From a bacterium (GTDB taxonomy: Bacteria > UBA8248): DNA of 64,000 nucleotides. Positions 1 to 52,341 of the stretch are shown piece by piece. Under the pieces are notes generated by a model, which saw only the letters and a list, made by a program, of their open reading frames with translations, did not search any database and was not told the origin of the DNA. The translations under genes were made by a program, and so were the position numbers. The stretch lies in NCBI GenBank assembly GCA_022828125.1, contig JAJEJD010000012.1, positions 193,309 through 257,308 of the forward strand, read 5' to 3'. How positions within the stretch are numbered: the stretch's first letter is position 1; every line of letters begins with the position of its first letter.

Positions 1-904
1 CCGCCGCCGCCGCGAGATTTGTGCTGACGAACACGTTGCTCATCGTCACTGCATCGACTGAGCCCTTGACCACGAGCATCGAGCCGCCGTTGAACCCGAA
101 CCAGCCGAACCAGAGGATGAAGACGCCCAGGGTGACGAGCGGGACGTTTGAGGGCGGCGTCGACTTGACGCTTCCGTCCTCGCGGAACTTGCCGCGCCGT
201 GCGCCCACGACGATTACGCCCGCAAGCGCCGCCCATCCACCGGTCGAGTGCACGATGGTGGAACCGGCGAAATCACTGAAACCCAGCTCCGTGAGCCAGC
301 CTCCGCCCCACGTCCAGGCGCCCACCAGCGGGTAGACGATTCCGGTCAGGACGGCGATGAAGACGAAGAACGACCACAGCTTCACGCGCTCGGCGAGGGC
401 GCCCGAGACGATGGAGGCGGTGGTCGCCACGAACGTCATCTGGAAAAACCAGAAAGACATGCTGGCGTAGTCGGTCCCGAGCACGGTCTTCGTGGCCTTC
501 TCGTTCCCGGCCAGTATGGCGAATTCATCCGCCGAGGGTCTGAACAAGAGTTTGACCGAACCGATCCAGCCCCCGACGTCCACGAACATCAGGTTGTAAC
601 CGATGATGTAGAACATGATCCCGGCGATCCCGTAAAGACCGATGTTCTTGAGACAAATCACCGAGGCGTTCTTGGTGCGCACCGAACCCGATTCGAGCAT
701 CGTGAAGCCCGCGCACATCCACATGATGAGCACACCACAGATCAGCAAAAAGAAGGTGTTGAATATGAACTTATCGTTTGCGACCTGAGTCTCGACGGGC
801 ATGGCCGCCTCCGCTCCGCTCGCGGCGAAAACAAGAACAACGAAGGCGAGAAACGCTCCCCGGACGGCAGGCCATGGAAGAGAAATTCGATGACGGTTTT
901 TCAT
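1..904 (-). CDS. amt: ammonium transporter (Amt family), partial; C-terminus runs off the window start
   Basis: Reverse-strand translation from ATG (904..902) gives a signal peptide then FNTFFLLICGVLIMWMCAGFTMLESGSVRTKN...ILWFGWFGFNGGS, which are typical Amt/AmtB motifs. No stop codon before position 1. Not in the ORF track because it is open-ended. Confidence 0.85.
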   Translation of the reverse strand, partial: MKNRHRISLPWPAVRGAFLAFVVLVFAASGAEAAMPVETQVANDKFIFNTFFLLICGVLIMWMCAGFTMLESGSVRTKNASVICLKNIGLYGIAGIMFYIIGYNLMFVDVGGWIGSVKLLFRPSADEFAILAGNEKATKTVLGTDYASMSFWFFQMTFVATTASIVSGALAERVKLWSFFVFIAVLTGIVYPLVGAWTWGGGWLTELGFSDFAGSTIVHSTGGWAALAGVIVVGARRGKFREDGSVKSTPPSNVPLVTLGVFILWFGWFGFNGGSMLVVKGSVDAVTMSNVFVSTNLAAAA

Positions 905-1322
905 GAGCTCACTCCCATTCTTGTGAAAACCGGTTTAATTTCGCTTCGTTCCCGAAGAGATTCTGTTTGGCGAAAAGGTGTAGCGGGCGGAACAGAGGCG
1001 GATAAAACATGACGCGCCGTGTATTCATCGGGGCGAGGCGGAACGAGGATCACCATACACGCCTCCGGATAGGGCCGTCGATATGTGCCGCAATTGTATT
1101 GAAAACATATTAGTGCATGGGAAGGAAAAGATTCAAGAAATTTTTTTCACGAGGATGCTCGCGGGTTCGGCGCGACCCGGCTTCACCGCATCGATCAAAT
1201 CGCTCCCGCCGCCCCTGGTGTCCGGCTCCACAGCCGATGCCCGGGTGTGAGAAAACCCGCCCCCCCACGCATCGCTCGGAGCGAATACCCCGAAACCGGG
1301 CGGAGGCGCAGGAACTCGCCTT

Positions 1323-1439: not shown

Positions 1440-1595
1440 ATGGGGTTCCCCTTTCAGGGTGGGTGCCTTTATCCCCTGAGGAGGGGGACTTTTTCAACAA
1501 GTCTCGATTCCCCGGAATTGGACGCCGTCCGGCGCTTCAGGCCGCATAAATAAGCGCCCGCCGGTCGGCGGGCGCTTATTGCTCGATGGCGAGAC

Positions 1596-2201
1596 TCAAG
1601 AAGGCAGGGGCACGTCTTTCCCGTAAATCTGCTCGGACTGCTCTTGCGTCACGGGGTTGCCCTCGGGATCGTGCAAGGGATAGGCCTTGAGTGTGCGCAT
1701 GAAGACCTGGAAACCATAGTGAATCGCCACCATCGCGCCGATCTCCATGATCTGGGCTTCTGAAAAGTGCTTCTTGCCCTCATCGTAGAATTCCTTGTCG
1801 AGTCTCGCGGCGTCCCGGTACATCCAGTAGGAATAGCGGAGCGCCCACTTCTCGGCTTCGGTGAACTGCGGGTCGTTCTCGAAATCTCCGCAGGCGGCCT
1901 CAATGCGTTCTTCCGTCAGGCCCTCTTTTTTCGCCTGCTCGGAGCGAAGGTTCGCAAAGTAGGTGTCCTGCGCGGTTCTGGCGAGCTGGATGCGGATCAT
2001 CTCCTTGAGCTTGTGGTCCACCCCGCCCATGGCGTGGGAGCGGTGCATGGCGTCGTGCAGGTTGGCGGCATAGCCGGGCGCATGGGCCATGATGCGCGAG
2101 AAAAGCGCATCGGGCGCCTGGGTTTCGGCGGTGCGCTCCATGACGCGCTTCCAGTTCTTCTCTTCAATTCCTTCGGGTTCGAGCGGCTCGATAATCGGCA
2201 T
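1596..2201 (-). CDS. carboxymuconolactone decarboxylase (CMD/AhpD-like) family protein, Cys-less at the CxxC position
   Basis: 201 aa ORF with the CMD-family HKLKEMIRIQL block. GGAGG RBS 6 nt upstream of the ATG. Paralogous to the gene immediately upstream. Confidence 0.75.
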   Translation of the reverse strand: MPIIEPLEPEGIEEKNWKRVMERTAETQAPDALFSRIMAHAPGYAANLHDAMHRSHAMGGVDHKLKEMIRIQLARTAQDTYFANLRSEQAKKEGLTEERIEAACGDFENDPQFTEAEKWALRYSYWMYRDAARLDKEFYDEGKKHFSEAQIMEIGAMVAIHYGFQVFMRTLKAYPLHDPEGNPVTQEQSEQIYGKDVPLPS

Positions 2202-2210
2202 GTTCTCCTC

Positions 2211-2873
2211 CTAGCTTCCGCCTGCCTGTTGCGCCTCACCCTCTTCGATCGCGCGAGCGAGCGGGCCGCTCAGGTGCGATACGGGGCAATCGCCGTAGAT
2301 GCGGCGCGATTCCTCCTGACTCACCAGCCGGCCGTCGGGGGTGAACATGGGGTAGAAATCGAGTGTTCTGAAAAAGGTGTGGTAGCCCACGTTGAAGCCG
2401 ATGAAAGAGCCGAGCTCAACAATTTCCTCATCCGAGTAGTGCTCGCGCAGCCTTGCGTAGAAGGCCTCGTCGATCTTCTCGGGCTCCGAATCCATGAGTT
2501 CACTGTATTCAAGCGCGAGTTTTTCGGCCTCGGTGAAAAGCTCGCTCTCGTGCCAGTTGTCGATGCCCTCGTCTATCATCTCTTCCGTCAAGCCTGCCTG
2601 CTTCGCCGAAGCAGAGCGCACGTTACCTCAGTAGTTGCAAAAGGCGCGGCGCGATAGCTGGACGCGGATGATCTCCTTGAGCTTGTGGTCGATGACGCCG
2701 GTGTTGAACACCGTGCCCCACGCGAGGTACATCGATTTCGCCAGATCCTCGTTGTGGCCCTGCATGGCGTGAAAGGCGGGGTCGGGCGCGCGGTGTTTTA
2801 ACGCCTTGTTGACGAACGGCGCCAGCTTCGTCTTCTTCAGATCCTCGATGTCGAGCATGGTGATGTTGGACAT
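2211..2873 (-). CDS. CMD/AhpD-like family protein with an in-frame TGA (2628..2630) in a C-N-Y-U motif; selenoprotein candidate (AhpD-like selenoprotein)
   Basis: ORFs 2628..2873 and 2211..2621 are in the same frame, separated only by TGA plus 2 codons. Joined product is ...HKLKEIIRVQLSRRAFCNY-U-GNVRSASAKQAGLTEEMI.... It aligns to the CMD consensus GCaYC, with Sec at the second Cys. The paralog 1596..2201 has DTYF at this position. Confidence 0.6.
2598..2614 (-). promoter_or_regulatory. hairpin (7 bp stem CUGCUUC/GAAGCAG) 13 nt 3' of the in-frame UGA; candidate bacterial SECIS
   Basis: mRNA reads UGAGGUAACGUGCGCUCUGCUUCGGCGAAGCAGGCAGG; perfect inverted repeat read directly from the sequence. 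Confidence 0.4.
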
Positions 2874-2922
2874 ATGAAATCTCCCTGAAAATGATGTGCG
2901 GGATAAATTGTCGGCTATCGCA

Positions 2923-4290
2923 TCAGGCTCCGCTCTCTGCCTGAACGCGGCGCAGGGCGGTGTCGAGAGCGGAGGCGGCGCGCTCGGCCTCTTCTTCGGT
3001 CAAGACCAGCGGCGGACTGATGGTGACGGTGTTCGAAGGACCTGCGGCGATACCTGCGTTCTTGCCGAAGATCACGCCTTGCTCCTTCGCGTAGGCCAGC
3101 ACCTTCGCCGTGGCCGCCGTGGATAGCGGCGCGCCGTCTTCCTCTATCAACTCCACGCCCCAGATGAGGCCCACGCCCCGCACGTCGCCCACGCAGGGGA
3201 TGTCGGAGAGTTTGCCCAAAAGCCCGCCGAGATATGCGCCCACCTTGGCGCCGCGCGCGGGCAACTCCTCGTCCATCATGATTTCGAGATTCTTGAGCGA
3301 CGCCGCGCAGGCGACGGGGTGTCCGCCGTAGGTGTTTATCTGCAGAAAGCCTGAGTCTCCTTCGGCGTTCAAGGCCTCGAATATCTCGTTCGTGGTCGCC
3401 GTCGCCCCGATGGGCAGATAAGCGCTGCTCAGCCCCTTGGCCATCGTCATGATGTCCGGCTCGATCTCGTACAGATCGGAGGCGAAGAGTTCTCCCGTGC
3501 GCCCGAAGCCGGTGATGACCTCATCCGCGATAAACAAAACGCCGTGGTTCCGGCACACCTCGCGCATGCGTTTCAAATAATCCGCGGGCGGTGGAATCAC
3601 CCCGCCGCCGCCGATGACGGGCTCAGCGATGAACGCCGCCACGGTCTCGGGGTCTTCGTAGCGGATGACCTCATCCAACTCGTCCGCGCACCGGCGGGCG
3701 AGTTCTTCCTCGGTGTCCGCGTTGCTTCGGTAGAAATAGGGCGCGCTCACGTGAATCACGCCCGGCAGAAGCGGCTCGAACATCGCGCGCCGGAGCGTCT
3801 GGCCGGTGAGGCTGGCGCCTCCGATGGTCGCCCCGTGATAGCCCTGGTGGCGGGCGATGATCTTGTATCGCCTCCCGCCGTTCAAGCGGCCATAGGCGCG
3901 GGCCAGCTTGATGGCCGTGTCCACGGCTTCTGAGCCCGAGTTCACGAACCAGACGCGCTCGACCCCTTCGGGCAGCAAGGACGCGAGCCGCTCGGCGAGC
4001 CTCGCCGCGGGGGGATTCACCTGCGTCAGTGGATAGTACGCCAACTCCAGCATCTGCTCGTAGGCCGCCTTGGCCACCTCGTCGCGCCCGTAGCCGATGT
4101 TCACGCACCAAAGCCCCGCCATGGCGTCGATGTATTCCTTGCCGGAGGCGTCCTGGATGGTCGAACCCCTGGCCTTGACCACGACGTCGAGGGGATTTTC
4201 CTCTATCCCGGAATGGTTCATGAGCGGATGCCAGACGTGTTCCTTGTCCATCGCCCGCAAGGATTCGGCTTCGGCTATGGCTGGATTCAT
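2923..4290 (-). CDS. class III (omega) aminotransferase, PLP-dependent
   Basis: Motifs GLWCVNIGYGRDEV, VNSGSEAVDTAIKLAR, ARHQGYHGATIGGASLTGQ. Start set at the internal Met with a GAGGGG RBS (ORF track starts 13 codons earlier, at 4329). Confidence 0.8.
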   Translation of the reverse strand: MNPAIAEAESLRAMDKEHVWHPLMNHSGIEENPLDVVVKARGSTIQDASGKEYIDAMAGLWCVNIGYGRDEVAKAAYEQMLELAYYPLTQVNPPAARLAERLASLLPEGVERVWFVNSGSEAVDTAIKLARAYGRLNGGRRYKIIARHQGYHGATIGGASLTGQTLRRAMFEPLLPGVIHVSAPYFYRSNADTEEELARRCADELDEVIRYEDPETVAAFIAEPVIGGGGVIPPPADYLKRMREVCRNHGVLFIADEVITGFGRTGELFASDLYEIEPDIMTMAKGLSSAYLPIGATATTNEIFEALNAEGDSGFLQINTYGGHPVACAASLKNLEIMMDEELPARGAKVGAYLGGLLGKLSDIPCVGDVRGVGLIWGVELIEEDGAPLSTAATAKVLAYAKEQGVIFGKNAGIAAGPSNTVTISPPLVLTEEEAERAASALDTALRRVQAESGA

Positions 4291-4384
4291 GAGGGTCCCC
4301 TCTCGGGTTTCAGCAATTCGGAATTCCATTGATCGATGCGAAAATCTTAATGCGCAAACGGGTGCGAATCAACCGCCGGGAGAA

Positions 4385-5371
4385 CTAGCCCGGCGTATAT
4401 TCGGGGCTTTCGCTCCTGATCCGAAAGGCCTGGCGCCCGACCCCCTCGATTTCGCCTTCTATCAAGTCGCCCTCCTGGAGATATTCCCCCCACGAGGCGG
4501 CGTTGCCGGCAGGAGAGCCGGTGCCGATGATGTCGCCCGTCCGAAGCGTGGCGATCCCCGATAGATACGATACCTGCTCGGCGACCCGCCAGACCATGTC
4601 GCCCGTGGTGGCGTCTTGTCTCAGTTCGCCGTTCACCCAGAGCTTGAGCCTCAAATCGTGGGGGTCGAGCCCCTCCTCGGGGAGCAGGATGTAGGGGCCG
4701 ATGGGAGCGAAGCCGTCCGGGGCCTTCATGGCGTACCAGTCGATGAACTTTCCCATGTTGAGCGTCGTGCGGTCGCTCATGTCGTTGAACAGGGTGTAAC
4801 CGCCCACGTGATCCATGGCTCTTTCCACCGGAATGTTCTTGCCGCCCTGTCCGATGAGCACGCCGAGTTCGAGTTCGTAGTCGAGCTTTTCCATCGAGGG
4901 ATAGACGGGCACGTCCTCATATGGGCCGCTCACGCACGTGGCGGGCTTCAGGAAACAGTAGAGCGGGAGCTCCTCCTTGAAATCATCCACTTCGGTGCGC
5001 GCCATCTCGGCGGCATGGGCCACATAGTTTCTCGCCATGCAGAACAGCGTGTCCGGCACGACGGGGGGAAGAATCTCGACTTCATCGGGTTCATAGACCA
5101 CCTGCATTCCGTCGAAGCGAGCCGGGTCCTTTTTGCTCCCGTGCGCTTCGAGTGCTTCGAGAGCCTCCTCGGCGAGAGGACGGTTCAGTTCCAGGTCCTC
5201 GATGAACTCCTCGCAATCATGGGGGATCTCGGCCTCGACGCGATCCATGGCCTCCGCCGCTGTTTCCTCATCGAGCGACAGGGCGTAGGCCAGTTTCAGA
5301 TCGGCGATTCTCTCCCTGAACAGGACGCCGATGCGCGCCTCGCCCGCCAGACTGAACGTACAGATTCGCAT
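4385..5371 (-). CDS. fumarylacetoacetate hydrolase (FAH) family protein
   Basis: 328 aa; FAH-family C-terminal fold pattern (GDIIGTGSPAG..., EGVG). GGAGG RBS before the ATG at 5371. Confidence 0.75.
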   Translation of the reverse strand: MRICTFSLAGEARIGVLFRERIADLKLAYALSLDEETAAEAMDRVEAEIPHDCEEFIEDLELNRPLAEEALEALEAHGSKKDPARFDGMQVVYEPDEVEILPPVVPDTLFCMARNYVAHAAEMARTEVDDFKEELPLYCFLKPATCVSGPYEDVPVYPSMEKLDYELELGVLIGQGGKNIPVERAMDHVGGYTLFNDMSDRTTLNMGKFIDWYAMKAPDGFAPIGPYILLPEEGLDPHDLRLKLWVNGELRQDATTGDMVWRVAEQVSYLSGIATLRTGDIIGTGSPAGNAASWGEYLQEGDLIEGEIEGVGRQAFRIRSESPEYTPG

Positions 5372-5510
5372 GAAGGTGAGCCTCCAGGTTTCAAGTCCGC
5401 GACAAGGGGAATCCTACCACAGGGGCGCGGGCGATGCCGCACCGCTCGTAATACAGCGTTCCAGGAAGACCAGCTAGGCTCGAAACGCCAAGACGCGTCC
5501 TGAAGCGATT

Positions 5511-6356
5511 TTATTCCGTTCTTCGGTGCCGGTTCAGAAAATCGAGAATCAGCCGCCGCGCCTTCTCGTTGCGAGAGAGGTTGTGCGCCCGGCCCTCGAA
5601 AAGGTGAAACGCCATGTTCACGCCCCGCGCCCTTGCCTTGCGCAGGCACGAATCGGCGGGCCTGCCTCGCCTCCAAGGGTCGTCTTTCGAATACAGCGCG
5701 AGTGCGGGCGTACCGATCGGCATCCGAACGCCTCGCCAGCATACGGAACCACTGATGACGTGGGCGCTGAACTCATCCCCTTCATAGGCGGCGACCGCGG
5801 TGCCGCCTTGGCTATGTCCCGCCAGGAAGAGGTTTTTCCGGTCCACCCACCGAATGCGCCGGACTCGATATTCCGCGTGATGAATCTCCTCCTGCCGCAT
5901 CCGGCTCACCCGCCGGTGCGGCGCTCCCTTTATGCCTCGGTGTCGGGAAGGATCGCAGGTCTCGGGCCGGTAGCGGCGGGCGAAGCTGTCGGGCGCGATG
6001 ACGGCGTATCCCGCCCGCGCCAGAAACCGCATATAGCGCAAGTTTCCCCGGCCCAGCCCGGTGCAGCCGTGCGCGAAAATGACGGTGGGGCGTTTTCTCT
6101 TGAGGCCCGCGAGTTTTTGCTGAATGAAACCGTCGCTCATCCTGCCTTCGATGAGCGCGTCTTCTGCCTCGAACATGACGTAAGCGGCGTCGAAGGTGCG
6201 CCTCGCCTCCTCAAACAGATCGAGCGTTTTGGGGTCGACCCCTCCGGCGCAGCCCGATAAGAGATAACAAACCAACATCAGGATGAAGATAGAATGCCGC
6301 GTGGATGAATAACCGACAGTTCCGCGCCTCATAAACCCCCTAGACCACACCCTCAT
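5511..6356 (-). CDS. alpha/beta hydrolase lipoprotein, dienelactone hydrolase-like
   Basis: Lipobox LLSGCAGG, nucleophile elbow GHSQGG, DLH-like length. Start may instead be the internal Met at about 6332. Confidence 0.6.
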   Translation of the reverse strand: MRVWSRGFMRRGTVGYSSTRHSIFILMLVCYLLSGCAGGVDPKTLDLFEEARRTFDAAYVMFEAEDALIEGRMSDGFIQQKLAGLKRKRPTVIFAHGCTGLGRGNLRYMRFLARAGYAVIAPDSFARRYRPETCDPSRHRGIKGAPHRRVSRMRQEEIHHAEYRVRRIRWVDRKNLFLAGHSQGGTAVAAYEGDEFSAHVISGSVCWRGVRMPIGTPALALYSKDDPWRRGRPADSCLRKARARGVNMAFHLFEGRAHNLSRNEKARRLILDFLNRHRRTE

Positions 6357-7572
6357 CTTCCAGCTCTTTCAACTCAGCATCCGATACGCCGAGCAGGCCG
6401 CCGAGGATCTCCGCGTTGTGCTGGCCCACGAGCGGGGCGGGCGTTTTGTAGTCACCCTTTATCTCGCTGAATTTGAAGGGAAAGCCCGGGGCTTTCGCGT
6501 TCTTGAGGGTTCCGAGGGTGGGATGTTCGATGTCGACTATCATCCCGCGCTCTCGCATGTGGGGCCAGGCGAGGATGTCCTCGATGGTGTTCACCGGCCC
6601 GCAGATGACGTCGTGCGCGCGCAGGGAGGAGACCGCTTCTTTCGCCTCGCGGCGCTTCGTCCATTCGGTGATGATGGCGTCGACCTCCGCGACTCTGCTC
6701 ACGCGCCGGCTCATGTCCTCGTAACGCTCATCGCCAATCAATTCGGGGCGCTCGATACCGCGCAGGATGTTGTGCCAATGCGCGTTGGTGCCCGAGGCGA
6801 TGATGACCCAACCGTCTTTCGTCTCATAGGCGTTGAACGGGGCGAGCCGCATGATGCGGTTGCCGATGCGCGGCGGGAGGCCCAGTTGTTCGTAAAAATC
6901 CATCGGCTCATCGAAGATCAGGGAGAAGATGCAGTCGATCATCGAAATGTCGACCTGCTGGCCCTCCCCGGTGCGCTCGCGGTGAAAGAGCGCCGTCATA
7001 ATGGCGCCGAAGGCGAACGTGCCGCCCACGCTGTCACCGAGCGCGGAGCCCGCCTTGGTGGGCGGGCCGTCGGGAAATCCCGTGAGGTTCATGAGGCCCG
7101 AGGCGGCCTGGGAGACGGCGTCGTAGCCCTTGAGGCCCGAATCCGGCCCCGTCTGGCCGTAACCCGTGATGGAGCAGTAGACCAGGGAGGGCTTTCTCGC
7201 ATGGAGCGTCTCGTAGTCAACTTTAAGCCTTTTCGTGACGCCGACGGAGAAATTCTCCACCAGGATGTCGGATTGATCCACGAGCCCGTAGAACATTTCG
7301 AGACCCCGGGGGTCCTTGATGTTCAGGGTGATCGCCTTTTTCGCGCGCGTGCGCTTCAAGTAGGCAATCCCCAGGTCCTCATCCGTCTGGGGATGGTAGG
7401 AGACGCCCTTCTCACCGATGTAGGGTGGCGAATAAGCCACCGGGTCGCCGGTGGCCGGATTGTCGACACGGATGACCTCGGCCCCCAGCCCCGCCAGAAA
7501 AAGCGTGGCCTGCGGACCCGAGAGAAACTGCGTCAGGTCGAGGACGCGGATGCCTTCTAATGGCTTCGTCAT
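6340..7572 (-). CDS. CoA transferase family III (CaiB/BaiF-type)
   Basis: MTKPLEGIRVLDLTQFLSGPQATLFLAGLGAEVIRVD... is the family III CoA-transferase N-terminal signature. Roughly 75% identical to the paralog at 46755..47987. Confidence 0.85.
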   Translation of the reverse strand: MTKPLEGIRVLDLTQFLSGPQATLFLAGLGAEVIRVDNPATGDPVAYSPPYIGEKGVSYHPQTDEDLGIAYLKRTRAKKAITLNIKDPRGLEMFYGLVDQSDILVENFSVGVTKRLKVDYETLHARKPSLVYCSITGYGQTGPDSGLKGYDAVSQAASGLMNLTGFPDGPPTKAGSALGDSVGGTFAFGAIMTALFHRERTGEGQQVDISMIDCIFSLIFDEPMDFYEQLGLPPRIGNRIMRLAPFNAYETKDGWVIIASGTNAHWHNILRGIERPELIGDERYEDMSRRVSRVAEVDAIITEWTKRREAKEAVSSLRAHDVICGPVNTIEDILAWPHMRERGMIVDIEHPTLGTLKNAKAPGFPFKFSEIKGDYKTPAPLVGQHNAEILGGLLGVSDAELKELEDEGVV

Positions 7573-7583
7573 GAAAAGCCGAG

Positions 7584-8126
7584 CTAGCCTTCGAGCAGAA
7601 TCTTCACCGCCTGGCGGGCCGCATCGCCCGCGCGCGCGGAGATTTCCTCATCCGAGAGCGTGCTCAGGGGGTGCTGGATAACCACGGGGTCGAGGTCGTT
7701 CATGCCCAAAGCCGCCCTTTGCACGTGGGCTTCGTGCAGGAAGACCTCGGTCACGACAACGGCGGTGGGCACCCCTTTTTCTTCCAGGGAGATCGCATCG
7801 TGCATACAGCACGAAGTGCAGGAGCCTCAGTCCCCGATCGCCGTCAGGACGACGTCGTTCTCCTCCGCGATCTGCGCGATCAACTCAGGCGCCGCGTTTT
7901 TGGAAAAACTCTCTTTCTTGTAGTAGCGCACCTCGGCGAAGGGGCCTTCCGCCTCCATCAGCGCCGTGGTTTTCTCGAGCAGCCTGCGCCCGTTCCACTT
8001 CGTGTTGTCCAGGACGCCGAGCTTGAGACCCTTCAAATCCCGGACGCGCTGCGCAGTGGGTTGGGCCGCTGCCTCGACCACTCCCCGGGGGTCGTAGACG
8101 ACCTGACCGGTGATGACGTCACTCAT
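7584..8126 (-). CDS. small protein with in-frame TGA (7827..7829) in a D-U-G-S-C-T-S-C-C motif; selenoprotein candidate (UGSC-type)
   Basis: ORFs 7827..8126 and 7584..7805 share one frame, with only TGA plus 7 codons between them. Joined product is about 181 aa: ...VVLTAIGD-U-GSCTSCCMHDAISLEEKGVPTAVVV.... UxxCxxC-like arrangement. Confidence 0.6.
7798..7814 (-). promoter_or_regulatory. hairpin (UCGUGC/GCACGA stem, UGUAU loop) 12 nt 3' of the in-frame UGA; candidate SECIS
   Basis: mRNA reads UGAGGCUCCUGCACUUCGUGCUGUAUGCACGAUG; inverted repeat seen directly. Confidence 0.35.
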
Positions 8127-8154
8127 GGTTTCCTCCAGTTTTCTCTTGCTAACG

Positions 8155-9249
8155 CTATAGCAGACAGGTGCCGTCCACGCAGACGGGGCCGCCTTCGAGC
8201 GCTCTTCCGTCGATTGCGCGCAGCACCGGGTTCGTCATGTGGCCCCAGCCGGGAATGAAGGCCGAGAAACGGCCCGCCTCCCCGCCCGCCACGAACAGGT
8301 GAATGTTCTCGGGAGACGGCACGATGGGGATTCTCTCATCCGGCTCGCGCCTGTACCACTTGGGGATGTTGCGGTTGTAAACTTTTCCGTAGCGGTGGTT
8401 GAACGAGATATCGGCGAACGTGTTCCTGGTGTGCATCCACAGGTAGCTCTTCACGTCGTTCCGCGTCCAGTTCTTTGCGCTGATGGTCGCCCCGTGCTCG
8501 GGGCTGATGACGACGGCGCACGAGCCGCTGCTCACCGAATTGTTGTGCGCGATCGTGCTCATCGCCGAGCAGATGCTGTCGAGGATGCCCTCGGGATCGT
8601 CCGAGATGTGGTTCGTCACGCTGTGGGGCGCCTCGGCCGCGATGGCGAAGACCGTGGAATCCTCGGGCGCGTAGCCCTGTTCCACGTGGTAGGGCGCCCA
8701 GGGGCTGGCCTCTTCGTTCTCCGCGATGCAGTAGGTGTATTTGGTGGGACAGCCCAGCGTGCTCTTGTCCAGATCGCCCGGCCACGCGCCGCCGGCGTTC
8801 AAGAGCATCATCCGCACCGCGCGGCCTATCGTCGCGTTGGCGCGGTTGCCCGAGCCGAACACGTTGCAGCCCGCGTTCATGCCGATCTCGTGCCGAACCG
8901 GCCCGTTCACCACGATGAGCGGGCACGCCATGTGTGTTGTGGCCTGCACGCCGTTCAGGTTGAAATGGGGGTCGCAAAGCGCCAGCATCGCCGCGCGGAC
9001 GACGGGCGCGTACTCCGCCTTGCAGCCCGCCATTACCATGTTGATCGCCAGAACCTCTCTCGTGAGGTTGCCCCAGCGAGGCGGCACGCGGCACTCGATG
9101 TAGTCTTTATCTCCGCCCAGGGCTGAGACGGCAGCGTCTATCTTCTCGGGCGTGGGCGGGACGACGGGAAGCCCGTCCGAGAAGCCCTGCTCGTAGTAGT
9201 ACTCCACCAAGTCGACTTCCTGATCCACCATCTGCGTCGTCTGCGACAT
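8155..9249 (-). CDS. conserved hypothetical protein (Cys-rich, 364 aa), first gene of the apparent operon
   Basis: Long ORF with GC-typical codon usage. The next gene follows 28 bp downstream. I do not recognise the family. Confidence 0.5.
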   Translation of the reverse strand: MSQTTQMVDQEVDLVEYYYEQGFSDGLPVVPPTPEKIDAAVSALGGDKDYIECRVPPRWGNLTREVLAINMVMAGCKAEYAPVVRAAMLALCDPHFNLNGVQATTHMACPLIVVNGPVRHEIGMNAGCNVFGSGNRANATIGRAVRMMLLNAGGAWPGDLDKSTLGCPTKYTYCIAENEEASPWAPYHVEQGYAPEDSTVFAIAAEAPHSVTNHISDDPEGILDSICSAMSTIAHNNSVSSGSCAVVISPEHGATISAKNWTRNDVKSYLWMHTRNTFADISFNHRYGKVYNRNIPKWYRREPDERIPIVPSPENIHLFVAGGEAGRFSAFIPGWGHMTNPVLRAIDGRALEGGPVCVDGTCLL

Positions 9250-31514: not shown

Positions 31515-31707
31515 AAGGCAACCCCCCCTACCCCCCCTTGTCAGGGGGGTAAGAAAAAGCAAAACCCCTTCCACCCGGCGGCGGGCAAGGAAAAGCAAAA
31601 TCCTCTCGGCCCGGCGGCGGGCGTCGTCTTTTTTTCATATCCCGTACTTGCCGGGGGGTCGGTCTTTTTTACCCCCCTGTTAAGGGGGGGTAGGGGGGGT
31701 TGCTTTT
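31515..31707. repeat. MITE-like element family R1, copy 2 (longer, with internal duplication)
   Basis: AAAGGCAACCCCCCCTACCCCCCCTTGTCAGGGGGG ... ACCCCCCTGTTAAGGGGGGGTAGGGGGGGTTGCTTTT. Confidence 0.8.
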
Positions 31708-37522: not shown

Positions 37523-37648
37523 AAAGGCACCCCCCCCTACCCCCCCTTGTCAGGGGGGTATAAAAAGGCGATGCGCCCCCGCCGGGTTGAGGGGGTTTTG
37601 ATTTTTCTTACCCCCCTGACAAGGGGGGGTAGGGGGGGTTGATTTTCA
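37523..37648. repeat. MITE-like element family R1, copy 3 (core inverted relative to copies 1, 5 and 6)
   Basis: Same roughly 36 bp TIRs. Its core TATAAAAAGGCGATGCGCCCCCGCCGGG is the reverse complement of the copy 1 and copy 5 core. Confidence 0.8.
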
Positions 37649-40202: not shown

Positions 40203-40347
40203 AAAGGCAACCCCCCCTACCCCCCCTTGTCAGGGGGGTCTTTTTGTTGCTCCCCCTGTCGGGGGACCTTTTTCTTTTTACCACCCCCACCGTCAGAGCA
40301 TTGCTTTTTCATACCCCCCTGACAAGGGGGGGTAGGGGGGGTTGGTT
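40203..40347. repeat. MITE-like element family R1, copy 4 (divergent core)
   Basis: AAAGGCAACCCCCCCTACCCCCCCTTGTCAGGGGGG ... CCCCCCTGACAAGGGGGGGTAGGGGGGGTTGGTTTT. Confidence 0.8.
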
Positions 40348-41940: not shown

Positions 41941-42197
41941 TGACGCTTTTGCAGTGCGGCGCAGGAGCATTCTGCCATGACCCGCCGCGCCCGCGATGAC
42001 CGCAAATGCGGGGAAATGCGCATTCCGCGCAAAAGGGCACCGAACGGCCCATATGATGCGATTTTGCCTCATCGCGGCGTTGTGCTAGATTCAATCCATC
42101 CTCTCGAATGAAAACTCAGGCGTCAGGCGAATGCCGCGAGAGGACGAGCAGTTCCAGGTCAACGCACGGATCCGACAACGGAAACCCGAGGTTACAC

Positions 42198-43100
42198 GTG
42201 GACCGAACCGAGGCCCGAAAACCCATTGATAATCAAGAGGTAAAGCGCACAGCCCGCGAGCTGGGCGCCGACCTCGCGGGGGTCGCATCGGCGGAGGATT
42301 TCGCGGAAGCGCAGCCGGGCTGCCGCCCCAGGGACTTGTTCAACATGGCGAACAGCGTCGTCGTGGTCGCCAAGCGCGTCCCCTTCGCCGCGGCCACGCC
42401 CTATCCCAGCATCGGCGCGATGGAGTTCGGTGAATACATCCCCGAGAATTTCCTGAACGAAGCCTGCTATCGCCTCTCGCTGTTTCTCGAAGATATGGGC
42501 TGGCTCTCGGGCGCCACCCCGTGCGGGCGCGACATCACGAGCTTCCGCGTGGAAGAAGAAGGCGCCGAACCCAGGGTCTTCCTCCAGGGCTCCTTCGACT
42601 TGCGGCTCGCGGCGGTCAAGGCCGGTCTCGGGCATATCGGCGCCAATAACTGCCTGATAACGCAGGAGTACGGCTCTCGCGTCCGCCTGGGCGCGGTGTT
42701 CACCGAGGCGAAGCTCGAACCCGACCCGCCCAACCAGGTCGGCGCGATCCCCGAGTTCTGCCATGAGTGCGGCTTTCGCTGCGTGAAGGCCTGCCCCGCG
42801 AACGCGCTGCCCGGCGACGGCACGGTGGATCACTACCGCTGCATGGTCATCCGGCCGGACCTGGTCGCGCCGGAAAAAGCCCTGGCCCACTTCAAGAAAC
42901 TCTTCCGGGGCAAGCCCATGATCATGGCGGCCAAGGGCCTCTCCTACACCGACAGCCCGCCGCATCCATGCAGCACCTGCATCGCGCTCTGCCCGATGGA
43001 TCAGGGCCGCGATTTCGCGCATAAACCCTTTCACCGCGAATCCTGGACCGATGAAGACGCGCTCAAGGTCATCGATCCGGCCCTGCTGGAGAATCCCTGA
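42198..43100 (+). CDS. QueG-like (epoxyqueuosine reductase family) 4Fe-4S protein, paralog 1
   Basis: GANNCLITQEYGSRVRLGAVFTEAKLEPDPP block plus Cys cluster CHECGFRCVKACP. GTG start aligned to the paralog. Confidence 0.5.
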   Translation: MDRTEARKPIDNQEVKRTARELGADLAGVASAEDFAEAQPGCRPRDLFNMANSVVVVAKRVPFAAATPYPSIGAMEFGEYIPENFLNEACYRLSLFLEDMGWLSGATPCGRDITSFRVEEEGAEPRVFLQGSFDLRLAAVKAGLGHIGANNCLITQEYGSRVRLGAVFTEAKLEPDPPNQVGAIPEFCHECGFRCVKACPANALPGDGTVDHYRCMVIRPDLVAPEKALAHFKKLFRGKPMIMAAKGLSYTDSPPHPCSTCIALCPMDQGRDFAHKPFHRESWTDEDALKVIDPALLENP

Positions 43101-43101
43101 A

Positions 43102-43971
43102 ATGGATAACGGCAAAGGCGCCGGAATTACCTCAGGCGACGTCAAGGCGCAGGCCCGTGAATTCGGCGCGGACCTCGTCAACATTTCCTCGTGCGAGGGC
43201 TACGAGAAAGCGCTCCCCGGCTGCAAGCCCCATGACCTGGTGAAGGACGCCAGGAGCGTCGTCGTCTTCGCGCGCCGGATGCCCTTCGGCAACGCGACGC
43301 CCCGACCCTCGGTGGGTTATCTGGAATTCGGCTATTACGGGCACGAGGCCTGGATCAACAAGCTCTCATACCGCCTGGCGCTCTGGTTGGAGGACGAGGG
43401 ACACATGGCGCTGCCCACGCCTGCCGGACGGGACATCCCCTCGCTCCGCATCCTTCGAGAAGGCGCGGAACCGGAAGTCTTCATGCAGGGTTCTTTCGAT
43501 CTCAGGCTCGCCGCGGTGAACGCGGGCATGGGCGAGATCGGCGTGAACAACAACCTCATCACCGCCGAATACGGCTCGCGTCTGAGACTCGGAGCGGTCG
43601 TCACGACGGCCGCGCTCGAAGCGGACCCGCCCCAAAAATACGGCGTGGTTCCCGATTTCTGCGTGGAGTGCGGCTACAAGTGCATCAAGCCCTGCCCGGC
43701 GGGTGCGCTGCCCGGAGACGGCGCGGTGGATCACTACAAGTGCATGGTGATGTATCCCCAGAAAGTTTCATCGGAAAAAGCCGTCGACGTCTTCAAGACG
43801 CGCTACGGCTACCCCGAACTCCAGCTCGCCGGACGAATGATGGCCTTCACCGAGAACGCGCCGCACATCTGCGCGACCTGCATCACCCTGTGCCCCATGG
43901 ACGAAGCGCGCCGCGTCAAGGAGAAGGCGAACGGCGGCGGGGGCGGTCAACCACTTCCAGTCGTGCCATAA
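43102..43971 (+). CDS. QueG-like 4Fe-4S protein, paralog 2 (tandem)
   Basis: Roughly 55-60% identical to the preceding gene (GVNNNLITAEYGSRLRLGAVVTTAALEADPP; CVECGYKCIKPCP). Confidence 0.5.
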   Translation: MDNGKGAGITSGDVKAQAREFGADLVNISSCEGYEKALPGCKPHDLVKDARSVVVFARRMPFGNATPRPSVGYLEFGYYGHEAWINKLSYRLALWLEDEGHMALPTPAGRDIPSLRILREGAEPEVFMQGSFDLRLAAVNAGMGEIGVNNNLITAEYGSRLRLGAVVTTAALEADPPQKYGVVPDFCVECGYKCIKPCPAGALPGDGAVDHYKCMVMYPQKVSSEKAVDVFKTRYGYPELQLAGRMMAFTENAPHICATCITLCPMDEARRVKEKANGGGGGQPLPVVP

Positions 43972-44236: not shown

Positions 44237-44360
44237 AAAGGCAACCCCCCCTACCCCCCCTTGTCAGGGGGGCAAGAAAAAGCAACCCCCCCTCAGCCCG
44301 GCGGGGGCGCATCGCCTTTTTATACCCCCCTGACAAGGGGGGGTAGGGGGGGTTGGTTTT
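44237..44360. repeat. MITE-like element family R1, copy 5
   Basis: Near-identical to copy 1, including the core CAAGAAAAAGCAACCCCCCCTCAGCCCGGCGGGGGCGCATCGCCTTTTTATA. Confidence 0.85.
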
Positions 44361-46754: not shown

Positions 46755-47987
46755 ATGCCGAAACCGCTGGAAGGATACCGGGTGCTGGACTTGACCCAGT
46801 TCTACTCGGGGCCCTGGACGACGCTCCTGCTCGCCGGTCTGGGGGCGGAAGTCATCAAGGTGAACCACCCGGCCACGGGCGACGTGGTGGCCATGGGGCC
46901 TCCCTACGCCGGTCCCGAGGGCGTGTCCTTCCACAAGCAAACCGAGGACGATCTGGGAATCGCCTACTTGAAGAGAACCAGAGACAAGAAATCCCTGACG
47001 CTCAATCTCAAGGAGCCGCGCGGGCTGGAGCTGTTCTACCGCCTGGTGGATGAGGCCGACGTGCTCGTCGAGAACTTCTCGGTGGGCGTAACGAAAAGGC
47101 TCAAGATCGACTACGAGACGCTCGAGAAGCGCAACCCCCGGCTCGTCTACTGCTCCATCACCGGCTACGGGCAGAGCGGCCCCGATGCGCGGCTCAAGGG
47201 CTACGACGCCGTCACCCAGGCGGTCTCTGGGCTCATGAACCTGACCGGCTTCCCGGACGGCCCCCCTACCAAGGCGGGTTCCGCCATCGCGGACAGCATC
47301 GGGGGCACCTTCGCCTACGGCGCCATCACCACCGCGCTCTTACACCGCGAGCGAACGGGCGAGGGCCAGTGGGTGGACGTCTCCATGGTGGACTGCCTCC
47401 TGTCGCTCGTGTTCGATGAGCCGATGGACTGCTACGAGGCGCTGGGGCTGCCCGACAGGCTGGGGAACCGCATCATGCGCCTATCGCCTTTCAACGCATA
47501 TCCCGCGAAGGACGGCTGGCTGGTGATCGGCTCGGGCACGGATGAGCACTGGAACAACATCCTGCGCGCCGTGGGACGCGGGGAACTGGTGGGCGACCCG
47601 CGTTATGCGGACCTGAGCGGCCGCATCACGCACAACGACGAGGTGGACGCCGTCATCACGCAGTGGACGGAAAAGCACACCGTGGAAGAGGCGCTCTCAG
47701 CGCTTCGCCGTTTCGACGTCATCTGCGGACCAGTCCACACCATCCGGGACATCCTCGCCTGGCCGCATCTCAAGGCGCGGAACATGATCGAAGACCTCCC
47801 CCACCCCGCGCTGGGAAATCTCAGCGAAGTCAAGACGGCCGCCTTCCCGCTCAAATTCAGCAAAACCCCCGGCGGCTACGACGCCCCCGCGCCGCTGAGC
47901 GGCCAGCACAACGAGGAGATTCTCGGCGACCTGCTCGGCCTCGCGAAAGAGGAGATCGACCGGCTCAAGGAAGACGGCGTTATCTGA
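46755..47987 (+). CDS. CoA transferase family III (CaiB/BaiF-type), paralog of 6340..7572
   Basis: MPKPLEGYRVLDLTQFYSGPWTTLLLAGLGAEVIKV...; 410 aa, the same length as the paralog. Confidence 0.85.
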   Translation: MPKPLEGYRVLDLTQFYSGPWTTLLLAGLGAEVIKVNHPATGDVVAMGPPYAGPEGVSFHKQTEDDLGIAYLKRTRDKKSLTLNLKEPRGLELFYRLVDEADVLVENFSVGVTKRLKIDYETLEKRNPRLVYCSITGYGQSGPDARLKGYDAVTQAVSGLMNLTGFPDGPPTKAGSAIADSIGGTFAYGAITTALLHRERTGEGQWVDVSMVDCLLSLVFDEPMDCYEALGLPDRLGNRIMRLSPFNAYPAKDGWLVIGSGTDEHWNNILRAVGRGELVGDPRYADLSGRITHNDEVDAVITQWTEKHTVEEALSALRRFDVICGPVHTIRDILAWPHLKARNMIEDLPHPALGNLSEVKTAAFPLKFSKTPGGYDAPAPLSGQHNEEILGDLLGLAKEEIDRLKEDGVI

Positions 47988-48224: not shown

Positions 48225-48815
48225 ATGCCTATCACGGCCGATTTGACGATTCGAGAAACCGCCGCCCTCTCGGGAGTGCCTCGGACGACGATTGAAAAAA
48301 CCGTGGAAGCCCGCGTCTTGCGGCCCCTCGCCGGCCCGGTCCGTCTCCGTGGTGGCACGACGCGCTATCTCCCAATCCGCGCCGTAGTCTATTTCCACGC
48401 CCTGAAGGCAGCCAACCTTACGGACCTCCCTTTGCGCCATAAGCGGGCGATTTGGACGAATATGATTCGGATCGAGCCCATGCAACTCGAGACAATCGAA
48501 TTTACGCCCGGCGCGACGCTCGATCTCGATCGCCTAGCGGCGGACGCTCTGTGTAAGGCTGAACGATACCGAAAAGCCCGAGATCGATACATCACATCAG
48601 ATGAGAATATCCTCGGCGGCACACCGGTTATCGCCGGGACACGGTTGACGGTTTACGCGATTCTTGGGCGGCTGCAGGACGGAGACAGCGTCGATGATCT
48701 CGTAGAGGACTATCCTGAAATCCCGCGCGAAGCGTTCGAGGCCGCCGAGATATACGCCAAAACTCATCCTCTTCGAGGACGCCCGTCCGGCAGACCCTGG
48801 CGAAACGTGGCCTGA
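48225..48815 (+). CDS. DUF433 domain protein (putative antitoxin-like partner)
   Basis: C-terminal ILGGTPVIAGTRLTVYAILGRLQDGDSVDDLVEDYPEI is the DUF433 signature. Confidence 0.6.
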   Translation: MPITADLTIRETAALSGVPRTTIEKTVEARVLRPLAGPVRLRGGTTRYLPIRAVVYFHALKAANLTDLPLRHKRAIWTNMIRIEPMQLETIEFTPGATLDLDRLAADALCKAERYRKARDRYITSDENILGGTPVIAGTRLTVYAILGRLQDGDSVDDLVEDYPEIPREAFEAAEIYAKTHPLRGRPSGRPWRNVA

Positions 48816-48832
48816 GCGGCGGTTGTAGCCGG

Positions 48833-49222
48833 GTGATGCGGATGTTTCTTGATGAGTGTCTGTCCCCCAGAATTGCCCAAACCCTGAATGCCGAGGGGGA
48901 TCATGTTGCTCTTCATCCGCGCGATTTCGGTGGGCTGGGTGCGTCGGATCACCACGTATTGGCCAGATGTATCGAGCAGGACCTCGTACTCGTGACGGCC
49001 AACGCGCGCGATTTCCGCGCCCTTGCCGCCGCACGGGACGTGCATCCCGGCCTCGTCATCTTGCCGAGTGTGGGCCGAGAACGTTCGGAGGCGCTGCTGC
49101 GTGGCGCAATCGCTTTCTTGTCCCAACACGGCGACCCGATGGACGTCATAGTCAACCATGTTCTCGAAGTATCGGCAGAGGCGGAGATGACGCTCTCGAT
49201 GTTGCCGACGCAAGAGCAGTGA
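48833..49222 (+). CDS. DUF5615 (PIN-like) domain protein (putative toxin-like partner)
   Basis: MFLDECLSPRIAQTL...VLVTANARDF matches the DUF5615/Mut7-C-like pattern. Starts 18 bp after the DUF433 gene. Confidence 0.55.
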   Translation: MMRMFLDECLSPRIAQTLNAEGDHVALHPRDFGGLGASDHHVLARCIEQDLVLVTANARDFRALAAARDVHPGLVILPSVGRERSEALLRGAIAFLSQHGDPMDVIVNHVLEVSAEAEMTLSMLPTQEQ

Positions 49223-52221: not shown

Positions 52222-52341
52222 GAAAACCAACCCCCCTACCCCCCTTGTCAGGGGGCAAGAAAAAGCAAAACCCTCTCGGCTCGGAGGGGGCGCATCGCCT
52301 TTTTATACCCCCCTGACAAGGGGGGGTAGGGGGGGTTGCCT
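52222..52341. repeat. MITE-like element family R1, copy 6
   Basis: GAAAACCAACCCCCCTACCCCCCTTGTCAGGGGG ... CCCCCCTGACAAGGGGGGGTAGGGGGGGTTGCCTTT, then ATCCCCTG. Confidence 0.8.

Follow-up and report, generated by a model that had tools for sequence, protein, structure and literature searches.

An eight-gene cluster of a UBA8248 bacterium that probably joins two separately conserved selenoprotein pairs, one of them UGSC with an orphan partner

In a stretch of 64,000 nucleotides from a bacterium of the GTDB lineage UBA8248 (assembly GCA_022828125.1, contig JAJEJD010000012.1, forward-strand positions 193,309 to 257,308; hereafter the window), positions 1596-9249 carry eight co-directional open reading frames (ORFs) on the minus strand, named here g1 (high coordinates) to g8 (low coordinates), which include a selenoprotein of the UGSC family (g2) and a CMD/AhpD-like selenoprotein (g7). 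The cluster is probably a lineage-specific joining, within one transcript, of two independently conserved selenoprotein pairs, g1 with UGSC and g7 with g8, and of a number of exchangeable accessory enzymes. An initial annotation of the same DNA had proposed one dedicated eight-gene selenium-dependent module; across genomes, only the g1-UGSC and g7-g8 pairs proved to be conserved, each separately from the other. The genes and the elements associated with them are as follows.

8155..9249, minus strand: g1, orphan protein of 364 residues, partner of UGSC; no match in Pfam or NCBIfam
7584..8126, minus strand: g2, UGSC selenoprotein of 180 residues, selenocysteine (Sec) at residue 100; PF24696 E=8.5e-59, NF041046 159.9 bits
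7827..7829, minus strand: UGA (Sec) codon of UGSC, an in-frame TGA within IGD-U-GSCTSC
7796..7816, minus strand: hairpin of UGSC resembling a selenocysteine insertion sequence (SECIS), predicted by folding, 13 nt past the UGA; stem CGUGC / GCACG, loop UGUAU
6340..7572, minus strand: g3, family III CoA-transferase; PF02515 E=2.2e-115
5511..6356, minus strand: g4, DLH-type alpha/beta hydrolase carrying the lipoprotein signal LSGC (lipobox); PF01738 E=1e-7; variable accessory
4385..5371, minus strand: g5, FAH-family hydrolase, hydratase or decarboxylase; PF01557 (FAA_hydrolase) E=2.8e-62; variable accessory
2923..4329, minus strand: g6, class III (omega-type) aminotransferase; PF00202 (Aminotran_3) E=4e-97, NF005812 495.5 against a cut-off of 488
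2211..2873, minus strand: g7, CMD/AhpD-like selenoprotein of 220 residues, CxxU at residues 79-82; PF02627
2628..2630, minus strand: UGA (Sec) codon of g7, an in-frame TGA within FCNY-U-GNVRS
2596..2617, minus strand: SECIS-like hairpin of g7, CUGCUUC-GGC-GAAGCAG, predicted by folding
1596..2201, minus strand: g8, CMD paralogue about 37% identical to g7, Cys-less and an obligate neighbour of it
1552..1577, minus strand: intrinsic terminator hairpin, 19 nt past the g8 stop codon and followed by AUUUAU

The genes, their order and their strand are those of the initial annotation, whose family labels agree with the Pfam and NCBIfam scans, g1 remaining without a match, and whose description of g8 as Cys-less is borne out at the site equivalent to the redox site of g7.

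Conservation of the neighbourhood was followed in 80 loci, recovered from genomes by similarity to g1 at an identity of at least 72% and thus representing one g1 subfamily; genes in these loci were called with an ORF heuristic of our own, and neighbours of g1 were counted up to 6 kb from it. Among the 80 loci, retention of the eight-gene order is confined to a Nitrospinota-like clade, in which the closest relatives of the window are metagenome-assembled genomes (MAGs) labelled Nitrospinota or Nitrospinaceae (L001-L014, 87-99% g1 identity) and further members (L016, L020, L022-L024) stand at about 80-83%; outside this clade none of g4-g8 lies beside g1 in any locus. Since the flanks of the cluster are syntenic in the clade as well (a 226-aa ORF without an assigned family, an alpha/beta hydrolase and a pentapeptide protein upstream, on the gpmI side; amt downstream), the order conserved within it is attributable to descent, and conservation of set and order across distant genomes, independent of the flanks, was not found. 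Even among close relatives the composition varies: g4 is missing in L001 (99% g1 identity), L005, L011 and L014 and, where present, reaches only 73-80% identity in relatives in which the adjacent genes are at 90-98%; g5 is lacking from L010, L011, L013, L014 and L016; g3 is absent from L013 and has an AtzE-like amidase in its place in L016; in L020 and L023 an insert of about 2.4 kb separates UGSC from g3. The DLH lipoprotein, the FAH enzyme, the class III aminotransferase (g6 being linked to g7-g8 in this clade only) and, in relatives, the AtzE-like amidase are clade-specific accessories. The neighbourhood comparison, which the initial annotation had named as a check of its proposal, thus goes against it: the order is lost outside a narrow clade, within which g3, g4 and g5 are individually dispensable.

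The distribution of the g1-UGSC pair is far wider. At 72-99% identity, homologues of g1 are found in 80 genomes that span more than ten phyla, the hosts including Nitrospinota, Tectomicrobia, Chloroflexota/Dehalococcoidia, Acidobacteriota (Vicinamibacterales), Gemmatimonadota (Longimicrobiales), SAR324, Rokubacteria/Methylomirabilales, Eremiobacterota, Dormibacterota and Alpha- and Betaproteobacteria. In 75 of the 80 loci UGSC lies 3' of g1, the median distance between them being about 41 nt; of the other five, one retains a remnant of UGSC and four have none. The remnant (Longimicrobiales, L018:11133-11318), in which only residues 6-38 and 140-173 align and next to which a CoA_transf_3 fragment is found, looks like decay of the g1-UGSC module. 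Five loci, all of Vicinamibacteria (L044, L053, L057, L059, L062), have a second, diverged pair at a distance of no more than 10 kb from the first, composed of g1' (38-41% identity) and UGSC' (31-33%, with Sec in ALAD-U-GSCTSC); these second copies indicate, as far as sequence comparison goes, a paralogous expansion of the two-gene module. The two proteins are also found fused: UGSC-g1 fusions are represented by P0146, P0178 and P0181, alongside a Redoxin/AhpC-g1 fusion (P0176), a fusion of g1 with thioredoxin reductase (P0200; TIGR01292 E=3.6e-99) and tandem g1-g1 proteins. Adjacency, fusions and paired second copies together mark g1 and UGSC as belonging to each other.

The independence of the other pair is apparent from four unrelated genomes (a 5.2-Mb genome, an Acidimicrobiia contig, a 207-kb contig and a SAR324 MAG, L087), in each of which an 81-aa ORF and another short ORF lie ahead of a g8 homologue; when the TGA is read through, these short ORFs constitute a g7 orthologue with CNY-U-GNVRSASAK. 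In the SAR324 genome g7 and g8 form a single polypeptide, and neither a class III aminotransferase nor a UGSC-domain gene is found within 7 kb at any of the four loci; judged from gene order, g7-g8 is a pair independent of the other modules. The constant company of g8 and the SAR324 fusion point to a heteromeric arrangement, of which no description was found in the literature searched; g7 (CxxU) and g8 would then form an AhpD-like hetero-oligomer with the redox centre on one paralogue only. As to family membership, both proteins exceed the cut-off of PF02627 (28.6 for g7 and 24.7 for g8, against 23), and both fall below that of the YciW-related (seleno)protein model NF053654 (71.6 and 42.4 bits, against 310).

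In the organism of the window the eight genes are probably co-transcribed, as the initial annotation had considered plausible. The spacers from g1 to g8 measure +28, +11, -17, +139, +55, +49 and +9 nt, g3 and g4 overlapping by 17 nt; the range of -17 to +57 bp given in the initial annotation has to be corrected for the g4-g5 spacer of 139 nt, whose folding is no better than that of shuffled sequences (z = 0.05). A minus-strand scan detected no terminator-like site in any spacer between g1 and g8, and the three weak matches inside g3, g5 and g6 belong to a total count equal to the shuffle background; the hairpin 3' of g8, with its U-rich tail, folds at -28.9 kcal/mol (z = -5.73; none of 200 shuffles folds as well). 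A common strand, short spacers, lack of internal terminators and a terminal one are the features by which a single operon is recognized in sequence, and the cluster has all of them; the scan for sigma-70-like promoters gave none on the minus strand, a scan which is uninformative for the host phylum.

Both TGA codons are taken with high confidence to encode selenocysteine, in agreement with the two selenoprotein calls of the initial annotation. When the whole window was scanned for TGA codons with coding signal on both sides, those of g2 and g7 were the only credible Sec sites. The g2 codon is TGA, in the motif AIGD-U-GSCTSC, in 74 UGSC genes of the g1-recovered genomes (in one more gene the contig ends before it) and also in the five diverged second copies, and 38 full-length UGSC homologues have Cys in the Sec column (CGSC); the g7 codon is TGA in all 22 orthologues compared (18/18 clade loci and 4/4 unrelated genomes), with g8 carrying no Cys at the equivalent site. 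In 61 of 61 distinct UGSC sequences the hairpin starts 13 nt after the UGA, and 92.8% of cells are paired; a pair formed by two wobble positions occurs as G-C (42), G-U (16) or A-U (2), and synonymous sites are biased toward pairing. Covariation in these 61 sequences is not above that of shuffles, since the hairpin encodes a peptide, CTSCCMHD, that is conserved in its own right. In the g7 hairpin a compensatory change from U-A to C-G is found in L016, L020, L022, L023, L084 and L086. It might be argued that the two TGAs are ordinary stops and the proposed selenoproteins split or pseudogenised ORFs, and public gene calls do split such ORFs into fragments of 99 and 81 aa; this explanation is scarcely credible, given that the codon is always TGA and never another stop in 74 UGSC and 22 g7 orthologues with the downstream frame kept, that homologues have Cys in its place, that hairpins stand at SECIS distance, with compensatory changes in that of g7, and that g2 passes a curated NCBIfam (seleno)protein model. 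The window itself has no selA, selB or selD, and Rfam (at gathering thresholds) and tRNA scans of its 64 kb gave no match, hence no SECIS family, riboswitch or tRNA-Sec.

As for the nature of g1, more than 7600 homologues are found (4899 representatives after clustering at 50% identity), without any Pfam or NCBIfam match and without a convincing fold match in the PDB, where sequence and profile searches with g1 and UGSC returned nothing under E = 0.1. Across the family, D25, R143 and E177 are invariant, with C76 present in 63 and C174 in 59 of 65 members; C244, several His and a disordered C-terminal tail with C357-x4-C362 are specific to the subfamily. The Cys pattern does not favour a relationship to class I fumarate hydratases or other Fe-S hydro-lyases, the three conserved [4Fe-4S] Cys ligands being lacking and only C76 and C174 being family-wide. 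The structural model of the UGSC-g1 fusion P0146 is one compact body (predicted local distance difference test, pLDDT, 87.6; predicted template modelling score, pTM, 0.89), in which the UGSC part folds into a flavodoxin/Rossmann-like alpha/beta/alpha sandwich, CGSC starting a helix, and shows no thioredoxin fold.

The genes surrounding g1-UGSC give some indication of the context in which the pair may operate. A family III CoA-transferase occurs within 6 kb of g1 in 29 of the 80 loci and directly 3' of UGSC in 25 of the 80; it has the latter position in the Nitrospinota-like clade and also in Rhodospirillaceae, Rokubacteria and Burkholderiales, whose UGSC-linked enzymes are 45-55% identical to g3, that of Advenella being 36% identical, so that different CoA-transferase subfamilies appear to have been recruited repeatedly beside g1-UGSC. 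The match of g3 itself to PF02515 is full length (residues 5-386), and its scores against the nearest NCBIfam equivalogs, succinate-glutarate (287.6 against a cut-off of 750) and succinyl-CoA:mesaconate (280.4 against 700), remain below threshold. A LarA-like protein is encoded within the same distance in 23 loci, all of Vicinamibacteria, and selA, selB and/or an NDH-SelD fusion in 11, mostly of Alpha- and Betaproteobacteria (L060, L063, L066, L067, L070, L072, L074, L075, L077 and L080 among them); in L070 the sel genes are near g1 and UGSC was not found, while elsewhere near sel genes UGSC may be a principal client of the Sec machinery. Scattered neighbours are an amidase, an acyl-CoA dehydrogenase, a methylmalonyl-CoA mutase, a CoA ligase and LLM oxidoreductases. 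In the cultured genus Advenella a Cys-type operon, adjoined by a LysR regulator, has the order g1 - UGSC(Cys) - CoA_transf_3 - TctC - TrxB, TctC being a carboxylate-binding protein, with a g1 70% identical to that of the window and a TrxB of 378 bits on TIGR01292 (cut-off 343); trxB was found in none of the 80 loci and is seen in this operon and fused to g1 in P0200.

The adjoining of g1-UGSC by varied CoA-transferase subfamilies and by partners of the thioredoxin system is the main reason for the mechanism proposed here. The substrate-binding catalytic subunit would be g1, acting through Cys76 and Cys174 together with Asp25, Arg143 and Glu177; UGSC would be its dedicated redox subunit, with Sec-x-x-Cys at the N-terminus of a helix and a distant kinship to the Sec region of PrdB/GrdB, giving or taking reducing equivalents through a selenenylsulfide to be re-reduced by a thioredoxin/thioredoxin-reductase-type system. 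The recurrence of the family III CoA-transferase suggests, as the most likely substrate, an organic acid that is processed as its CoA thioester. The kinship with PrdB/GrdB comes from a comparison of 40 UGSC proteins with the Grd/Prd models, in which weak matches, always in the region of the Sec residue, were obtained to PrdB for 36/40 (best E=1.8e-4), to GrdB for 11/40 and to GrdF for 3/40; g1 matches none of these models in any of 65 members at E<=0.1, which leaves an analogue of PrdA/GrdE, the pyruvoyl proenzyme partner, without sequence support, and GrdA, GrdC and GrdD were absent among neighbour clusters and Pfam-annotated loci. We infer the interaction of the two proteins, the direction of electron flow and the class of substrate from fusions, neighbours, fold and weak homology. 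On this basis it can tentatively be suggested that g1-UGSC may represent an unrecognised class of two-subunit selenium-dependent reductase, made up of an orphan-fold catalytic protein and a PrdB/GrdB-like Sec subunit, recycled by thioredoxin, acting on a CoA-activated organic acid and found widely among bacteria from soil, from the sea and from sponges in more than ten phyla.

Four points weigh against the picture of two independent pairs and of a PrdB/GrdB-like redox subunit. The selection of the 80 loci through g1 means that a single subfamily is described. The similarity to PrdB/GrdB covers about 55-80 residues and lies far under all curated cut-offs, with the Sec register derived from coordinates. 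For g7-g8, independence is judged from four loci. Lastly, within the clade g1-UGSC, the aminotransferase and g7-g8 are always together, at 65-99% identity, so that a functional link between the modules is possible.

This constancy also speaks for the reading in which all eight genes form one selenium-dependent pathway of amino or keto acid catabolism, with uptake or activation by the CoA-transferase, hydrolysis by the DLH and FAH enzymes, transamination and two Sec-dependent redox steps: the core of g1, UGSC, aminotransferase, g7 and g8 is kept in 18 related genomes (L016, L020, L022 and L023 included), the genes share strand, short gaps, terminator-free spacers and one strong final terminator, and an ammonium transporter gene 3' of g8, in the window and in 13 relatives, would fit a route releasing nitrogen. 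A terminator and a repeat element, however, stand between g8 and that gene; the order is lost outside a clade whose flanks are equally syntenic; g3, g4 and g5 are each absent from close relatives, with an amidase instead of g3 in L016; and elsewhere g7-g8 occurs alone and g1-UGSC among quite different neighbours, all of which makes a single pathway unlikely. What survives of the amino- or keto-acid route suggested in the initial annotation is the connection with CoA thioesters and organic acids, to which CoA-transferases of different subfamilies beside g1-UGSC lend some independent support in several phyla; that with the FAH enzyme and the aminotransferase is clade-specific.

A different proposal would see in both pairs general thiol-peroxidase or antioxidant devices (AhpD-like, Prx-like) placed amid unrelated metabolic genes, with g1 as a redox substrate or chaperone. 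It has in its favour the AhpD/CMD superfamily membership of g7 and g8, the fusions of g1 with AhpC/Redoxin (P0176) and thioredoxin reductase (P0200) and the fact that reviews place UGSC with presumed redox proteins of unknown function; nevertheless the identity of g1 between phyla is about 75% and the protein has, besides Cys, invariant Asp, Arg and Glu which look like a substrate site, the CoA-transferases (29 loci), the LarA-like proteins (23 Vicinamibacteria loci) and the LysR and TctC of Advenella point to a specific small-molecule substrate, and the model of UGSC has neither a thioredoxin nor a Prx fold, so that this proposal, too, is improbable. Still less probable is a role of g1-UGSC in selenium metabolism itself, for instance in the delivery of selenium to SelD or in the recycling of selenium compounds, as the sel genes near g1 in 11 of the 80 loci might suggest: selenoprotein genes often adjoin the sel genes that serve them, hence a main client would be expected beside them, there are UGSC operons of the Cys type, as in Advenella, and most loci have no sel genes nearby.

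Compared with systems already described, the reductase-like arrangement proposed for g1-UGSC resembles the Grd/Prd enzymes (GrdB/GrdF/PrdB with GrdE/PrdA) in combining a U-x-x-C subunit with a larger partner, here the predicted catalytic one, and in the supply of electrons by thioredoxin reductase and thioredoxin, which for g1-UGSC is presumed. It differs from them in that g1 has no similarity to PrdA/GrdE, that GrdA, GrdC and GrdD were not found nearby and that its hosts are largely aerobic or environmental lineages rather than Stickland fermenters. The UGSC-containing protein was named by Zhang & Gladyshev 2008, and a fusion of UGSC with a domain called 'Unknown_1' has been reported (PMC2398784); this domain is very probably the g1 family. 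A full member of the UGSC family (NF041046, 159.9 bits against 125; PF24696, 199 bits against 25), g2 shares the UGSC motif in which Sec is nearly always found and Cys forms are rare; the fold, guessed in the literature to be thioredoxin-like, is flavodoxin/Rossmann-like in the present model. Full-text literature searches yielded no functional study of UGSC and no described g1/UGSC/CoA-transferase system, nor, as the initial annotation had supposed, any pathway with the gene combination of the cluster; the papers searched contain no description of the near-universal g1-UGSC adjacency, of the Redoxin and thioredoxin reductase fusions, of the CoA-transferase that recurs beside the pair, of the neighbouring sel genes or of the TrxB operon of Advenella.

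With regard to g7, the likeness is to the CxxU selenoproteins of the AhpD/CMD type (Global Ocean Sampling (GOS) 'AhpD-like 2', PF02627), g7 having a CMD domain with CxxU where AhpD has CxxC; unlike the AhpD-like/NF053654 selenoproteins, g7 scores below the cut-off of that model and is always accompanied by the Cys-less g8. Operons with several selenoproteins have been described (grdAB, prdBC, frhA-frhD-hdrA, SAO, Tso; PMC13188914), and g1-g8 likewise has two selenoprotein genes in one co-directional cluster; the families are other ones, and g2 and g7 belong to separable modules which co-occur in one clade only. Among family III CoA-transferases (succinate-glutarate, succinyl-CoA:mesaconate, formyl-CoA), g3 and its paralogue in the window match PF02515 over their full length; unlike the named enzymes, g3 reaches no equivalog cut-off, and the UGSC-linked enzymes of other organisms belong to other subfamilies.

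The paralogue just mentioned (46755-47987, plus strand) is flanked by non-coding stretches and solitary, as the initial annotation had noted; the term diverged, also used there, does not apply to a protein 69% identical to g3 over all 410 residues. Two small adjacent ORFs lie 3' of it (48225-49222, plus strand) and are toxin-antitoxin-like in appearance, and at 42108-43971 (plus strand) two tandem paralogous ORFs encode Cys-rich proteins of about 310-330 aa with CxxC-type motifs resembling Fe-S sites. The amt gene downstream of g8 (961..2, minus strand) runs off the edge of the window and is 91% identical to the Amt of L006, which matches the 'marine subtype' TIGR03644. The repeat between the g8 terminator and amt is one copy of a dispersed intergenic element in which the 17-mer CCCCCTTGTCAGGGGGG occurs twice, in opposite orientations and at a distance of about 70-155 bp, and which in appearance resembles a miniature inverted-repeat transposable element (MITE) or a repetitive extragenic palindrome (REP); 12 matches, against 0.05 expected, form six sites in the window.

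1334-1420: CCCCCTTGTCAGGGGGG repeat site
31533-31688: CCCCCTTGTCAGGGGGG repeat site
37542-37627: CCCCCTTGTCAGGGGGG repeat site
40222-40330: CCCCCTTGTCAGGGGGG repeat site
44256-44341: CCCCCTTGTCAGGGGGG repeat site
52240-52324: CCCCCTTGTCAGGGGGG repeat site

For the annotation of these genomes it follows that the description of g1-g8 as one pathway is misleading, the transferable units being the g1-UGSC and g7-g8 pairs. As to the UGSC family, whose function is described as unknown in the literature searched, its members are, in the loci recovered through g1, almost never without this conserved orphan partner, and it is the partnership with g1, together with the fusions and the Cys-type operon of the cultured genus Advenella, that makes the question of their function a testable one.

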